Shown piece by piece: positions 4,981-10,037 of a stretch of DNA of 64,000 nucleotides; within the stretch, counting starts at the first letter, position 1; each line of letters opens with the position of its first letter. The translations under genes and the position numbers were made by a program. Location of the stretch: the sequence record PV946933.1. The stretch is one strand, 5' to 3'. The notes beneath the pieces were generated by a model. It saw only the letters and a program-made list of their open reading frames with translations. It was not told the DNA's origin and searched no databases. This stretch comes from a phage.

Positions 4981-5008
4981 ACAACCATCGGATAAAGAGG
5001 AGAACATC

Positions 5009-5197
5009 ATGAAAATTGAAGCACTTAATCAAGAAGGAAATATCTACGTCATCATTAATGGTGATTTTTTCGTCGACATGGATGAAGTTACCAGTGAAGA
5101 ACTTGAAGAACTTCTTAAGAAACGTTATGATATGTGTGATGAAGCTGCAACTCACATGGCGTGTGCAATATTCTCTCTTTCATATGTGGTAGAATAA
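5009..5197 (+). CDS. hypothetical small acidic protein (62 aa; track ORF 4964 trimmed to the ATG with RBS AAGAGGAG)
   Basis: Early promoter 4951-4980; strong RBS. Confidence 0.5.
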
Positions 5198-5400
5198 TGA
5201 TTAGTATCGAACAAGCAGATAAAATTAAAGAATTGGTAGCTTTAATTCGCAAAGCAGACGAGGAACTTAGTGACTTTGCTTGGTTTTCGGCAGGCATTGC
5301 AAATAAAGGCGCTGAAGAACTTGAAGCTAAAGTTGATAATGCTGTAGAAGCTTTAGATATGTTTCTTGATGAAATTATCGATCATAATACGAGAGTTTAA
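5197..5400 (+). CDS. hypothetical small helical protein (67 aa)
   Basis: TAATG overlap with upstream ORF; appears paralogous to the next two small ORFs. Confidence 0.45.
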   Translation: MISIEQADKIKELVALIRKADEELSDFAWFSAGIANKGAEELEAKVDNAVEALDMFLDEIIDHNTRV

Positions 5401-5402
5401 GT

Positions 5403-5597
5403 ATGCTGACATGCGAACAGTTTGAAAAAATCATTAAATTAGTACGTGATGTTGAAATAGATTCATATCAATTAGCAGTTGAGCATTGTGAAGGATATTC
5501 ATACGAAGGTATAGCAGCAGCTAAAAGGGATTTGGATAAATCTAAAGCTAAGTTAGTTCAATATCTTGAAATGATTAGGTGGAATAATGAAAACTGA
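5403..5597 (+). CDS. hypothetical small helical protein (64 aa)
   Basis: ORF; similar composition to neighbours. Confidence 0.45.
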   Translation: MLTCEQFEKIIKLVRDVEIDSYQLAVEHCEGYSYEGIAAAKRDLDKSKAKLVQYLEMIRWNNEN

Positions 5598-5760
5598 AAA
5601 GCAGATGTTTTTAATGAAGCTAATTGAAGAATATGCTAATGCAGTTTCTGACTATGAGTGTTCTTCTCGGGAAAGAGGTACAGCTTTCGCAAAGGAAGAA
5701 ATGAAAATCATGGTTGATGCTCACACAAAGCTTCAGAATTTTATTGAAAACGTCATTTAA
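5587..5760 (+). CDS. hypothetical small protein (57 aa, not in ORF track)
   Basis: ATG 5587 with RBS AGGTGG; overlaps upstream stop. Confidence 0.35.
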   Translation: MKTEKQMFLMKLIEEYANAVSDYECSSRERGTAFAKEEMKIMVDAHTKLQNFIENVI

Positions 5761-5762
5761 TG

Positions 5763-5792
5763 GTTTACAAGTTGGCAAGGTTATGGTATAGT
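5763..5792 (+). promoter_or_regulatory. T4-type early promoter inside 9-bp inverted repeat
   Basis: GTTTACAAG-N-TATAGT; arms GTTGGCAAG 5771-5779 and CTTGCCAAC 5796-5804. Confidence 0.65.
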
Positions 5793-5820
5793 AATCTTGC
5801 CAACTGCCAAGGAGAAGAGA

Positions 5821-5925
5821 ATGAAAGTTTTGTTTGTTGTGTATGTGATGATTCAATATAATTACCCAATGTTTACTTATAATCTGGTGAACAACATTAT
5901 TGATATTATTCAAAGGAGTATGTAA
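5821..5925 (+). CDS. possible hydrophobic micro-ORF (34 aa)
   Basis: Follows early promoter 5763-5792 and RBS AAGGAGAAG. Confidence 0.3.
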   Translation: MKVLFVVYVMIQYNYPMFTYNLVNNIIDIIQRSM

Positions 5926-5927
5926 TT

Positions 5928-6485
5928 GTGAGTGAGTCGAAGAGAATCAATATGAAACGATTAGTATTAGAAGTTAGTTCACTTTTTGGTGAATTGGCTA
6001 TAGAAAAAGTAAATAATATGTATCGTTTGACGCAAGAAGACGATATGCTATATTTTACGCCTAGTGAAATCATTCATTTAACCCAAATTGAAAATCCTTA
6101 TACTGATAAAATTGTAAGCATTAATGATGAGCATAAAATTCATTTTTATTCTTCATGCCCAGGATTTAATATTAAAAGTGAGTCAATGTGTTTATCAGTT
6201 ATTCATTGGGATAGTTTTATAGCTAAGATTAAATATTTTTATTATTCTAATGAAAGAAAACATAGTTTAAAATGGCTTAAAAATTGCAATGCTATTATTA
6301 CTAACGATTGCAATCAGAATGATGAAACTCTTTTAAATGTATCAAAATGTTATGAAGAAGGAGATGTCTTAACTATTCGTCAAATTGACGATTTTCGATC
6401 ACATATTGTCACATTTACCAAAGACGAAGCTATTGCGCTAAAGACTTATCTTGATTCTGTCATTCCAACTATGATTTCAAAGTGA
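5928..6485 (+). CDS. hypothetical protein (185 aa), paralog of 6492-7010
   Basis: Shared C-terminal motif (KDEAIALKTYLDSVIPTM vs KSEAEAMIKYLTTVTPSM); GTG start, or ATG at 5952. Confidence 0.55.
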   Translation: MSESKRINMKRLVLEVSSLFGELAIEKVNNMYRLTQEDDMLYFTPSEIIHLTQIENPYTDKIVSINDEHKIHFYSSCPGFNIKSESMCLSVIHWDSFIAKIKYFYYSNERKHSLKWLKNCNAIITNDCNQNDETLLNVSKCYEEGDVLTIRQIDDFRSHIVTFTKDEAIALKTYLDSVIPTMISK

Positions 6486-6491
6486 GGAAAT

Positions 6492-7010
6492 ATGTTTATT
6501 TCAAGTGAAAGTGGTTTAATTCGTGTTGAATTTAAAAATGACATCTTCCTTATTCAAGGAGATGATATTATTAAAATGAGTTATGACGAAATCAAGAAAA
6601 TTTGCCGTGCTCTTGAAAGTCATGGAAAAGTAAATGCTGTTATTGACATCGGTGATTTATGGGTGACACTTTATGAAGTATCCGAAGGATTTAACATTGA
6701 AGATGAAAATAACATCTTAGCTATTGATAAAAGAAGTGATTTGTTTGATGTATTAAAAGTTTATGAACAGTCAAACGGTGGAAGAAAAGCCGTATTGATT
6801 TATCAAAAACCACATTCATGTGGAACTGCTTCAATTATTTCAAATATTGAAGATGAAACTGATACTTATATGTGTGTTTTGAAAGCGGGCGGTGACCGTC
6901 ATCCGGATTTTATTTCTATTCGTCAAAACAATGGAGAAATTTCATTATCAAAATCAGAAGCTGAAGCTATGATTAAGTATTTAACAACTGTTACACCTTC
7001 AATGAAATGA
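6492..7010 (+). CDS. hypothetical protein (172 aa), paralog of 5928-6485
   Basis: See above. Confidence 0.55.
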   Translation: MFISSESGLIRVEFKNDIFLIQGDDIIKMSYDEIKKICRALESHGKVNAVIDIGDLWVTLYEVSEGFNIEDENNILAIDKRSDLFDVLKVYEQSNGGRKAVLIYQKPHSCGTASIISNIEDETDTYMCVLKAGGDRHPDFISIRQNNGEISLSKSEAEAMIKYLTTVTPSMK

Positions 7011-7477
7011 TAATTATGATTATTAATGAAAACTCTTGGCACTATAAATTATTCAAAATGTTTAATGATGAATGGAAACGACCTAAGACACTGTGTGCAT
7101 ACTTTTGGTCTATTGTCATTCCTACATTCTTCGTTTCTTTTTTCGGATGTACTATACTCGCAGGTCTAACTATCATCTGCGCAGAAATCATGCAGAAATG
7201 GCTTATTTTTGGTAGTTTATGGACTCTTATTCCATCAGCATTTATACTTGCCATTTTGCTTGTTTTACTTATTATCGGTTCATTTGTTATTCCTGCACAT
7301 TTGCGTGAAAAATATAAAGATTATAAATGGAAAAAGGATTATGCTTTACATGTAGAAAATATTGATAGGGCGTATAAAGGTTTACCTCCTATTCAACCCA
7401 AGAAATCTATTATCGTCGAATTTTTAAAAACGCGTAAAGCTAAAGTATGTCCTGTTATTGAATATAAGGCTAAATGA
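7007..7477 (+). CDS. multi-pass membrane protein (156 aa)
   Basis: Three to four hydrophobic helices; ATGA overlap with upstream and downstream ORFs. Confidence 0.55.
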   Translation: MIIMIINENSWHYKLFKMFNDEWKRPKTLCAYFWSIVIPTFFVSFFGCTILAGLTIICAEIMQKWLIFGSLWTLIPSAFILAILLVLLIIGSFVIPAHLREKYKDYKWKKDYALHVENIDRAYKGLPPIQPKKSIIVEFLKTRKAKVCPVIEYKAK

Positions 7478-8487
7478 TGAAAACAGTAATGAAAAGCTAT
7501 TTCGGTAGTCATCTTTATGGAACTTCTACTCCAGAATCTGATGTAGATTTTAAAGAAATCTTTGTTCCTCCTGCTCGTGATATTCTTATCGGAAATGTTA
7601 AAGAGCATATGAGCAAAAACACTAACAACACATCATCTAAAAACACTAAAGATGATATTGACCATGAACTATACAGTCTTAAGTATTTCTTTAAATTAGC
7701 AGCAGATGGTGAAACCGTAGCATTGGATATGCTCCACACTCCACCTGAACTGGTAGTTAAATCTGATTTGCCTGATGTATGGAAGTTTATTCAAGACAAT
7801 CGTTCTCGTTTTTATACGACTAGCATGAAATCCTATTTAGGATATGTCCGCAAGCAAGCTTCTAAATATGGTGTTAAGGGTTCTCGTTTGGCCGCATTAC
7901 GTGATGTATTGAAAGTAGTTAATCAAATCCCCGATCAGTGGGTTGATTACCGAGAAGATGGAACACAAGGACAACGTCGTACTAAAGTTGAAGATATTAA
8001 GCATCGTCTTCCAGAGAACGAATTCTGCGAATGGGTATTCCATAATCATGAGAAAACAGGCCCGCAGACGTTCTATACTGTGTTGGGTCGTAAATATCAG
8101 ACTACACTTTCTCTTATTGAGCTTAAGCAGTCTTTGAATAAACTTGATGCTGAATATGGTGAACGTGCTCGTAAAGCTGAAGCGAATGAGGGTATTGACT
8201 GGAAAGCACTGAGTCATGCTTGCCGCGGTGGACTCCAATTGTTGGAAATTTACAAAACTGGTGACTTAGTCTATCCACTCCAAGACGCTCCATTTATTCT
8301 CGACGTGAAGCTGGGTAAACATCCATTTAAAACGGTTCAAGAGTTTTTGGAAGATGTGGTCGATCAAGTAGAAGCAGCATCAATTGAAGCTTCTAAGAAC
8401 GGTATGCAGCAAAAAGTAGACATGGGTTTCTGGGATGACTTCCTTGAGAGGGTGTATCTCGAAAACCACCGAAGTTATTATAAATGA
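7474..8487 (+). CDS. nucleotidyltransferase-fold protein (Pol-beta superfamily), 337 aa
   Basis: N-terminal motif FGSHLYGTSTPESDVDF (hG[GS]-x10-DxD) with a candidate third acidic residue in VALDMLH about 60 aa later; helical C-terminal domain. Confidence 0.55.
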   Translation: MMKTVMKSYFGSHLYGTSTPESDVDFKEIFVPPARDILIGNVKEHMSKNTNNTSSKNTKDDIDHELYSLKYFFKLAADGETVALDMLHTPPELVVKSDLPDVWKFIQDNRSRFYTTSMKSYLGYVRKQASKYGVKGSRLAALRDVLKVVNQIPDQWVDYREDGTQGQRRTKVEDIKHRLPENEFCEWVFHNHEKTGPQTFYTVLGRKYQTTLSLIELKQSLNKLDAEYGERARKAEANEGIDWKALSHACRGGLQLLEIYKTGDLVYPLQDAPFILDVKLGKHPFKTVQEFLEDVVDQVEAASIEASKNGMQQKVDMGFWDDFLERVYLENHRSYYK

Positions 8488-8489
8488 TA

Positions 8490-8514
8490 GGGAGCCTTCG
8501 GGCTCCCTTTTTTA
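8490..8514 (+). terminator. intrinsic terminator
   Basis: GGGAGCC-TTCG-GGCTCCC plus T6. Confidence 0.85.
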
Positions 8515-8520
8515 TTTCAA

Positions 8521-8604
8521 AAATTTTTCACAAAACGGTTTACAAGCATAAAGCTTTATGGTACTATACAACTATCAACTGATACAGATTTGGAGAATAA
8601 AATG
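8521..8604 (+). repeat. PeSL-like promoter-leader cassette, copy 1
   Basis: AAATTTTTCACAAAACGGTTTACA...TATGGTACTATACAACTATCAACTGATACAGATTTGGAGAATAAAATG; near-identical blocks at 34937-35025 and 63352-63436. Confidence 0.8.
8538..8567 (+). promoter_or_regulatory. T4-type early promoter (in PeSL copy 1)
   Basis: GTTTAC-N18-TACTAT. Confidence 0.7.
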
Positions 8605-9570
8605 AAAACTGTAACTATCAATAAGGGTATCTACTTCGGTAAAGAAATCTCTGGAACTTTTGAGCTCTTAGGCGAATGGTTCCCAGATAATGCTCCAGTA
8701 GATGCACAAGGAGATGGTAAAGTTTTTGTTGAAATTGACGGTAAACGTCGCGGTGTTTGGGTTTACAAATCAGATATTTCATATGATGGTGTAAAAGTTG
8801 AAGAAGTTAAAGAATCATATGAAGATATGAAAACCCGCATTAATAAAAGATTTAATGTTATGGGAATGATGACGAATGGTATTATTAATGGAAATATTCG
8901 TTCATTAATTATCTCTGGCGCAGCAGGTATTGGTAAAACGTATTCTTTAGATAAAGCTTTAAATAAAGCAAATGATAATGGATACATTGAATATAAAAGC
9001 ATTAATGGTAAAATCTCTGGTATTGGTCTTTATGAACAGCTTTGGAATAATCGTGAAGAGAATTCTGTGCTTTTGATTGATGATGTGGATGTTTTCTCTG
9101 ATATGGACATTCTTAATCTTCTGAAAGCTGCTCTGGACACTGGAGAGACCCGTAAAGTTTGCTGGAGCACTGCATCTTCTTACTTAGAAGAAAAAGGCAT
9201 TGACCGTGAGTTTGAATTTAAAGGAACGATTGTTTTTATCACAAACGTTGACATTGACCGCGAATTAGACCGTGGTACTAAACTTGCTCCACATTTACAA
9301 GCATTAGTGTCCCGCTCAGTTTATTTAGATTTGGGTGTTCACACTAATGAAGAAATTATGGTCAGGGTTGAAGATGTTATTCTTTCAACCGACATGATGC
9401 AAAAGCGCGGTCTTTCTGATGAAGAAACTTATAAAGCATTATCATGGATGAAAGTCAATGTTAATCGTTTACGCAATGTTTCACTGCGTACTGCTCTTTA
9501 TCTTGCTGACTTTATTATGACCGACAAAAACGGTTGGGAAGAAATTGCTGAGGTTACTCTTCTGAAATAA
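8602..9570 (+). CDS. AAA+/P-loop ATPase (322 aa from the ATG; track start 8590 is TTG)
   Basis: Walker A SGAAGIGKT, Walker B VLLIDDVD, sensor-like IVFITN; driven by conserved promoter-leader cassette. Confidence 0.6.
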   Translation: MKTVTINKGIYFGKEISGTFELLGEWFPDNAPVDAQGDGKVFVEIDGKRRGVWVYKSDISYDGVKVEEVKESYEDMKTRINKRFNVMGMMTNGIINGNIRSLIISGAAGIGKTYSLDKALNKANDNGYIEYKSINGKISGIGLYEQLWNNREENSVLLIDDVDVFSDMDILNLLKAALDTGETRKVCWSTASSYLEEKGIDREFEFKGTIVFITNVDIDRELDRGTKLAPHLQALVSRSVYLDLGVHTNEEIMVRVEDVILSTDMMQKRGLSDEETYKALSWMKVNVNRLRNVSLRTALYLADFIMTDKNGWEEIAEVTLLK

Positions 9571-9671
9571 TTCATAAGAGGACTTCTATGACAAAAAGGC
9601 AGTTCAGAAATAGATTATATGGACTGCCATCAAAAAGATGACTAGAATTAAACTGGTAAATGGAGGTAGTG

Positions 9672-9974
9672 ATGTTATACTCAAAGGCTCGTGAAATTTA
9701 CGAAACTAAGATTAAAGAAGCTGTATTTCAATTCGCAACGACAATGCGATGGACAAATGACTGGGAGTATTCAAAAAATCATAAGAAGCCCATGGTGACA
9801 AGAAAGGCTCATATGTTAGTGTTAATAGACCGTGAGCAGATTAAAGCCCGAGAAGCCCTCCAGAATCATAAAAAGGCTGCCTTTGAATGGTTTATGGATA
9901 ACACTGCTCCTGAGACTAAGAAAGCGGTAAGCGCATGGTTCAGTGGAAAAAATTGTGAAAGAAGTTTCTTTTAG
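9672..9974 (+). CDS. hypothetical protein (100 aa) downstream of AAA+ ATPase
   Basis: RBS GGAGG 5 nt before ATG 9672. Confidence 0.45.
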   Translation: MLYSKAREIYETKIKEAVFQFATTMRWTNDWEYSKNHKKPMVTRKAHMLVLIDREQIKAREALQNHKKAAFEWFMDNTAPETKKAVSAWFSGKNCERSFF

Positions 9975-10037
9975 TGGTTTACAAGACTGTTCCTCTGTGG
10001 TACTATACAACTATCAACTACGGAGGAACACAAAATG
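9966..10037 (+). repeat. PeSL-like cassette, partial copy 5
   Basis: GTTTACAAG...TGTGGTACTATACAACTATCAACTACGGAGGAAC then ATG. Confidence 0.6.
9976..10005 (+). promoter_or_regulatory. T4-type early promoter
   Basis: GTTTAC-N18-TACTAT; inverted repeat TGTTCCTC 9987-9994 / GAGGAACA 10022-10029 includes RBS. Confidence 0.65.

Follow-up and report, generated by a model that had tools for sequence, protein, structure and literature searches.

A T4 nrdC.11 orthologue as a long-form RlaP-family nucleotidyltransferase with a proposed role in RNA-end repair

What does a phage do with a nucleotidyltransferase (NTase) whose gene begins where that of a membrane protein ends? The question is raised by an open reading frame (ORF) at 7474-8487, + strand, of a 64,000-nucleotide stretch of phage DNA from sequence record PV946933.1, hereafter the window. 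A first-pass annotation, made from the letters alone, had read this ORF as a Pol-beta-superfamily NTase translationally coupled to a multi-pass membrane protein, and had suggested that it might make or intercept a nucleotide signal or else modify a host or phage macromolecule. We find that the ORF is, almost certainly, the orthologue of T4 nrdC.11 and that its product is an RlaP-family Pol-beta NTase. By analogy with RlaP enzymes studied in Pseudomonas, we consider it probable, at roughly 60%, that NrdC.11 carries out metal-dependent, template-independent addition of nucleoside monophosphates (NMPs) to the 3'-OH of damaged RNA, as part of tRNA repair directed against anticodon nucleases that excise a nucleotide.

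The window belongs to a T4-like (Tequatrovirus) genome. The region around the ORF is 97% identical in DNA to many Tequatrovirus genomes; it corresponds to the T4 mobD-nrdC region in reverse-complement orientation and retains synteny with the T4 nrdC region. The ORF encodes 337 amino acids, beginning MMKTVMKSYFGSHLYGTSTPESDVDF, and its product is 96% identical over the full length to T4 NrdC.11 (NP_049709), for which RefSeq gives the product name 'nucleotidyltransferase'. In the databases a T2-type cluster matches best (97% identity), and the protein of Salmonella phage GRNsp7 is 99.7% identical. The position upstream of nrdC.10 is also that of T4 nrdC.11. The superfamily call of the first-pass annotation was right, but the gene had not been recognised as nrdC.11. 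The ORF is present as described and carries the NTase motif FGSHLYGTSTPESDVDF at residues 10-26. There is also an in-frame ATG at 7477, better spaced from the Shine-Dalgarno sequence (AAGG, 7466-7469); translation in T4 and its relatives is annotated as starting there, which would give a protein of 336 amino acids, and we regard it as the probable start. An antisense ORF of 113 amino acids (7897-8238) lies inside the conserved NTase frame and was taken as spurious, no family evidence for it having been sought.

To which NTase family does the protein belong? Pfam assigns it to RlaP (PF10127) with 45 bits against a family cutoff of 23 (E = 1.4e-11), the match covering residues 7-135 only, that is, positions 23-142 of a model of 249; PF10127 is likewise the precomputed assignment for all homologues of the protein. 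In PHROGs it falls into phrog_388, 'nucleotidyltransferase' (E = 3e-136). An exhaustive HMMER search, at E<=1e-3, returned 3451 representatives of 50%-identity clusters; those that match over the full length go as low as about 34% identity. As judged from sequence, the family match is thus far beyond chance. Fourteen residues (G11, S12, G16, S22, D23, D25, N57, D63, Y124, Y132, R231, K244, H248 and R251) are invariant in two homologue alignments, one of 48 sequences and one of 77 that reaches down to 38% identity; a further five (D61, D85, Q128, K131 and R138) do not vary among the 77 sequences and reach at least 90% conservation among the 48.

The invariant residues include those expected of a Pol-beta active site, whose signature is hG[GS], then [DE]x[DE], then a third carboxylate on the next core strand. 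The catalytic motif G11-S12...D23-x-D25 (7504-7548, + strand) matches this signature, and when the long protein is compared by hhalign with a profile of canonical RlaPs (80% probability, E = 1.4e-5, about 82 core columns aligned), G11/S12, D23/D25 and D63 pair with G27/S28, D39/D41 and D72 of the canonical proteins, in which G27, D39, D41 and D72 are invariant and S28 nearly so. D63 (7660-7662), which the structure model described below places on a strand at residues 62-68, is probably the canonical third carboxylate. The candidate third acidic residue had been sought about 60 residues past the DxD; the residue meant was probably D85, which is in the helix 81-87 and aligns with an invariant Glu of canonical RlaP, whereas D63 lies about 40 residues past the DxD. 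An acidic triad, D23, D25 and D63, is therefore found on alignment, at positions that in part differ from those first proposed.

A structure prediction had also been called for, to place the protein among NTase families. A first AlphaFold (AF2) model, built on a shallow alignment of close homologues (78-97% identity), had a predicted local distance difference test score (pLDDT) of 54 and was unusable; it was replaced by a model built on the 77-sequence alignment, which is confident (pLDDT 89.7, predicted template-modelling score 0.75). The model has the Pol-beta NTase core followed by a helical domain, as the annotation had it. In the core, a strand at 3-10 leads to the GS motif and a helix at 12-15, followed by a strand at 24-31 at D23/D25, strands at 45-49 and 62-68 and then helices, so that the predicted strand positions fit the Pol-beta signature. 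Between conserved helical segments lies a variable, beta-rich insertion, residues ~151-210 (7924-8103, + strand), with model strands at 155-159, 165-169, 185-192, 196-203 and 206-209; it is the least conserved part of the protein and contains gaps in homologues. The C-terminal helical domain (8113-8481, + strand) carries a family-specific motif, DWKAxSHAxR, at residues 242-251 (8197-8226). The model has helices from 214 to 336, with a confident last helix at 317-336, and hhalign gave no alignment between this half and the C-terminal half of canonical RlaP. In the crystal structure of PfRlaP, a C-terminal helical domain makes a cleft with the NTase domain and the last helix packs back on the latter. 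A reading of the C-terminal bundle as a HEPN RNase was considered and rejected, the sole Rx5H (326-332) being kept in about 20% of homologues.

Searches of the Protein Data Bank (PDB) by single sequence and by profile found no solved relative of the protein, and none of the cGAS, DncV, OAS or CD-NTase structures was among the top structure matches of the model. Cid1 and TUT7 appeared only as very weak Foldseek matches (TM 0.1). In BFVD the fold is seen in many phage and giant-virus 'nucleotidyltransferases'. The suggestion that a minimal NTase of this size could be a CD-NTase/cGAS-like signal synthase or an antitoxin-type MNT found no family match: Pfam and the PADLOC defence models contain no CD-NTase- or cGAS-type signature for the protein, with no PADLOC match of any kind, and NCBIfam gives only a sub-threshold hit to MntA (13 bits against a cutoff of 60). 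MNT antitoxins of type VII toxin-antitoxin systems are small NTases of ~100-140 amino acids that match MntA models and are paired with a HEPN toxin carrying Rx4-6H. Nor did Pfam place the protein with CCA-adding enzymes or poly(A) polymerases, NTP_transf_2 remaining below threshold (E = 0.082) and PolyA_pol giving no match.

These comparisons bear on the possibility that the enzyme transfers nucleotides to something other than RNA, that is, that it nucleotidylylates a protein or a small molecule in the manner of ANT/KNTase, the AMPylating MNT antitoxins or DrrA, and so alters a host factor during takeover. The structural likenesses that would suggest it are those of a generic Pol-beta fold, at 6-13% identity, and RlaP is the only family to reach significance by sequence. 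The MntA score is far from its cutoff, canonical RlaPs left E. coli proteins and DNA unlabelled (PMC12776372), and the gene context of the subfamily, described next, is that of RNA repair. We consider a target of this kind improbable.

By sequence comparison, NrdC.11 belongs to a distinct 'long' RlaP subfamily of ~310-340 amino acids, marked by the beta-rich insertion and the DWKAxSHAxR motif. We asked in what company this subfamily is found outside phages. In a survey of one genome per prokaryotic species, 80 loci encoded NrdC.11-type proteins; these are 31-54% identical in full-length alignment, DWKAxSHAxR included, and many are carried by chromosomal contigs of megabase size, from Desulfobacterales, Nitrospirota and Alphaproteobacteria. 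ORFs within 4.5 kb of each match were clustered and recurrent neighbours named with Pfam, many of the loci being on truncated contigs. A canonical short RlaP (~255 amino acids, full-length PF10127, 175-266 bits) was near the long form in 22 of the 80 loci, and in 20 of those 22 it was directly downstream on the same strand. RtcB was a neighbour in 10 loci, Hen1 in six (with a Pnkp ligase domain in three), Ro60/TROVE in five and an HD or HD_4 hydrolase in four to six. At least one of short RlaP, RtcB, Pnkp/Hen1, Ro60 and HD hydrolase was present in 35 of the 80 loci. Thus, even apart from the Pfam assignment, the NrdC.11 subfamily shows in its own right the association with RNA repair that defines RlaP, and these neighbourhoods support a putative nucleotide addition to RNA 3' ends in RNA repair.

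The long-then-short tandem occurs in both bacteria and archaea, often inside RtcB, Pnkp/Hen1 or Ro60 operons (loci L016, L029, L053, L062, L076, L079, L090 and others, at about 5000-6800 in each), and this conserved arrangement in cellular RNA-repair operons may be under-described. An HD_4 (RelA/SpoT-type HD) hydrolase gene directly 3' of the long form was seen in several Alphaproteobacteria (loci L045, L046, L058 and L081). Three distant phage contigs were also inspected. The first (L008) has an RNA ligase gene 4.5 kb upstream of its distant NrdC.11 homologue, the second (L011) has an HD_4 gene (6939-7445) directly downstream of the long RlaP, and the third has no telling neighbour. The HD_4 hydrolase could be an end-healing partner of the long form.

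The same HD neighbours permit another reading, in which the NTase tails or repairs RNA outside the anticodon loop, for example by restoring the 3'-CCA of tRNA after trimming by a host nuclease or toxin, or by attaching short tails through which host or phage transcripts are marked to be degraded or stabilised. In several loci the gene that immediately follows the long form encodes an HD hydrolase, and such a pairing of an NTase with an HD domain resembles the arrangement of bacterial CCA-adding enzymes. A CCA activity encoded by the phage, on the other hand, is made less likely by the reliance of T4 tRNA maturation on the CCA-adding enzyme of the host. In favour of this reading, species of full-length tRNA and rRNA size, as well as single-stranded RNAs, are also labelled by the characterised RlaPs, which discriminate little between nucleoside triphosphates (PMC12776372). 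The neighbourhoods, however, are dominated by ligase-centred repair (RtcB, Pnkp/Hen1, Ro60) and not by decay factors. We think that a role of this kind is unlikely, if the least unlikely of the three rival roles that we weighed.

T4-type phages encode Pnkp (pseT), Rnl1 (gene 63) and Rnl2 (24.1), and RNA repair as a means of counter-defence has its founding example in the Pnkp/Rnl1 pathway of T4. In the repair role that we favour, Pnkp would first heal the broken RNA ends, NrdC.11 would then extend the RNA 3'-OH by one or a few NMPs, and Rnl1 would seal the RNA, restoring full-length tRNA. The probable substrates of NrdC.11 would be tRNA halves produced by anticodon nucleases that also excise a nucleotide, RloC for example. 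The proposal extends to NrdC.11 what has been measured with two Pseudomonas RlaPs, which attach one or two NMPs to RNA 3'-OH ends, prefer Mn2+ and mimics of cleaved tRNA, act on neither DNA nor protein, E. coli proteins not being labelled, and partly rescue aminoacylation of a tRNA missing one anticodon-loop nucleotide (PMC12776372, a 2025 preprint). The prediction that RlaP restores nucleotides lost to anticodon-nuclease attack, as with RloC, is credited to Burroughs and Aravind (2016; cited in PMC7824862 and PMC12776372), and in jumbo phages the distribution of RlaP mirrors that of RNA ligase (PMC7824862). For NrdC.11 itself, the analysis shows orthology, the family membership of the NTase core, the catalytic residues, the fold and the repair-gene surroundings of its subfamily in cellular genomes; from these and the Pseudomonas activity we infer its substrate, how many nucleotides it adds and its role in infection.

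Several observations weigh against the repair role. Only the NTase core of NrdC.11, those ~82 columns, aligns to the canonical RlaP profile, and the enzymes assayed biochemically come from the canonical short subfamily; in the PF10127 sequence similarity network (SSN), T4 NrdC.11 was placed in cluster 5 and called of unknown function, the enzymes studied being from cluster 1a (PMC12776372). The frequent retention of both forms side by side in bacteria suggests that their activities are non-redundant. No RNA-repair gene adjoins the NTase gene in the window, or in two of the three distant phage contigs. We know of no NrdC.11 phenotype. Finally, T4 remains viable on laboratory hosts when nrdC.11-mobD.3 is deleted (PMC9825161), although this is as would be expected of a conditional counter-defence gene.

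The tandem paralogues, with their probably non-redundant roles, lead us to a more tentative idea. The long RlaP may be functionally distinct from the canonical one, acting either in sequence with the short RlaP or as a heteromer with it; the two might, for example, differ in specificity for nucleotide or substrate, or one of them might measure or hold the RNA, as a subunit, by means of the beta-rich insertion. The window has no second RlaP. T4-type phages might have captured the long form only, perhaps as the sole form able to restore the excised anticodon nucleotide ahead of Rnl1. We hold this to be possible, at well under even odds.

If the nucleotides that RloC and other 'smart' anticodon nucleases remove are put back by NrdC.11, the enzyme would be a missing third member of the Pnkp/Rnl1 pathway, and such a role would explain the retention of its gene by more than 1500 sequenced phages. 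Databases and literature already contain the gene with its annotation and family, as well as the role hypothesised for it, and the window adds no new type of system.

Is the membrane protein a partner? Its gene (7007-7477, + strand; 156 amino acids, of the phrog_944 / RB69 ORF104c type) does overlap that of the NTase, as had been noted: its TGA (7475-7477) overlaps the ATG at 7474-7476, and since the NTase may start at 7474 or at 7477 the overlap is ATGA or TGATG, either start overlapping the upstream stop. The membrane gene itself likely starts at 7016, an ATG which is the annotated start in close relatives. Two long hydrophobic segments span residues 28-62 and 65-100 of its product, whose C-terminal tail is rich in Lys and Arg. 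Conserved motifs at the N terminus (INxNSWHxK...P..LCxYFW) and the C terminus (KARKxKVCP) flank a variable hydrophobic core and are both predicted to be cytoplasmic. Two invariant cysteines, C30 and C148, lie in these terminal motifs, on the predicted cytoplasmic side. Many database entries in the region are mis-named 'thioredoxin' through spread of the nrdC label. We found no relative of the membrane protein in Pfam, PADLOC or the PDB.

The comparison with T4 is informative here. The window loses its DNA homology to T4 at two sharp breakpoints, 6510 and 7473; homology resumes at the first base before the nrdC.11 start on one side and at the end of mobD.1 on the other, and mobD of T4 fills the slot. 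The segment 6511-7472 of the window, which holds a second y05I-like gene and the membrane gene, is thus replaced in T4 (NC_000866, 56449-57258) by the HNH homing endonuclease gene mobD, and no membrane gene of this type was found in the 14 kb around nrdC.11 in T4. T4 mobD also overlaps the nrdC.11 start. Across phages, the NTase was found in 1518 records, including Acinetobacter, Aeromonas and Vibrio phages, and homologues of the membrane protein, down to 28% identity, in 895, which leaves about 600 NTase carriers with no detectable membrane homologue. Tequatrovirus, Mosigvirus and Dhakavirus phages have the membrane gene immediately 5' of the NTase; phages of Klebsiella and Enterobacter have two or three further small genes in between, and in them a different gene overlaps the NTase start, by the same four bases to judge from the coordinates. 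The swap in T4, the phage-wide counts and the other overlapping genes indicate that the overlap reflects the tight packing of T4-type early regions. The membrane gene is part of a swappable cassette, not a dedicated partner, and its link to the NTase is incidental. An obligate functional pair was accordingly rejected, and the pairing implied by the first-pass annotation is weakened.

The idea of an NTase that produces or imitates a nucleotide signal and works with the membrane protein must be judged in this light. It could take the form of a CD-NTase-like synthase or of a HalB-like oligo-dA synthase serving as a decoy, in a Hailong-like arrangement (HalB with the channel HalA) or one that interferes with CBASS. 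The membrane gene is missing from T4, where mobD has its exact slot; the NTase is in more phage records than the membrane protein, and other genes stand between them in Klebsiella and Enterobacter phages; and no solved structure, that of HalA among them if it has been deposited, is related to the membrane protein. With no CD-NTase, cGAS or MNT signature in the enzyme, a signalling or anti-CBASS function is not supported, and we rate it as very improbable, the least probable of the alternatives considered here. The practical consequence is a negative one: the NTase is not to be pursued as a CBASS or Thoeris signal enzyme, or as one half of a membrane-coupled two-component module.

The NTase is the last gene of an early-type transcription unit that comprises two y05I-like genes, the membrane gene and the NTase gene and ends at a terminator. 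Ahead of the four-gene block lies a tentative promoter candidate resembling sigma-70/T4 early promoters (5764-5792, + strand; TTTACA-17-TATAGT with TG), which was found by consensus scan with 10 of 12 matches. The first gene (5928-6485, + strand) encodes a y05I-like protein, the orthologue of T4 MobD.1 (86% identical; Pfam T4_y05I_N, E = 2e-38, and T4_y05I_C, E = 2e-21), and the second (6492-7010, + strand) a highly divergent paralogue with the same two Pfam domains, at 25-27% identity when set against MobD.1 and the first copy, the tandem pair of the window being 27% identical. The tandem paralogues carry the label 'putative transcription factor'; of the two, T4 carries MobD.1 alone here, the second lying in the mobD-swapped segment. 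The unit closes with a strong intrinsic terminator, an 8-bp G+C-rich stem and a T tract (8489-8508, + strand), and a terminator is annotated at the homologous place in phage SP1. An Rfam scan of window positions 5000-10000 gave only sub-threshold chance matches.

The NTase gene had been described as sitting directly upstream of an AAA+ cassette. The next gene is indeed that of the NrdC.10 orthologue (8590-9570, + strand; phrog_1250, E = 6e-167), identified by its T4 annotation and encoding a P-loop NTPase, but it belongs to a separate unit, behind the terminator and a promoter-like site at 8539-8567. Its Pfam P-loop matches (nSTAND3, AAA_16, AAA_22 and AAA) are all sub-threshold, and the gene is conserved across T4-like phages. 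In phage EP01 (L003, 3714-4199) and several relatives, a gene of 161 amino acids, annotated as a modA-like NAD-protein ADP-ribosyltransferase, stands after the NTase terminator and before NrdC.10; it has no counterpart between the NTase and NrdC.10 in the window.

How, then, does the protein compare with known systems? From T4 NrdC.11 it differs in its upstream neighbour, which is the homing endonuclease gene mobD in T4 and here the second y05I-like gene with the membrane-protein gene. With the RlaP family, characterised through the P. fluorescens and P. aeruginosa enzymes of the rtcB-rlaP-rtcA operon (PMC12776372), it shares the Pol-beta core with GS, DxD and a third Asp, the order of an N-terminal NTase domain and a helical domain, a score above the Pfam gathering threshold, and the association with RNA-repair genes. 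Unlike the characterised RlaPs, it has its own beta-rich insertion and DWKAxSHAxR motif and falls into another SSN cluster (5 versus 1a), and in bacteria proteins of its type adjoin canonical RlaP instead of replacing it. Kanamycin nucleotidyltransferase/ANT(4') and the uncharacterised NTase-like protein 3c18 are 8-11% identical to NrdC.11, with no relationship at the sequence level; the substrate of the former is an antibiotic, and the NrdC.11 locus has no resistance context. Hailong HalB (PDB 9dbh, 9dbj) is 17% identical over 133 residues only, with no family-level sequence match, and is a host defence enzyme that makes oligo-dA, whereas the membrane neighbour of NrdC.11 is dispensable and swapped out in T4.

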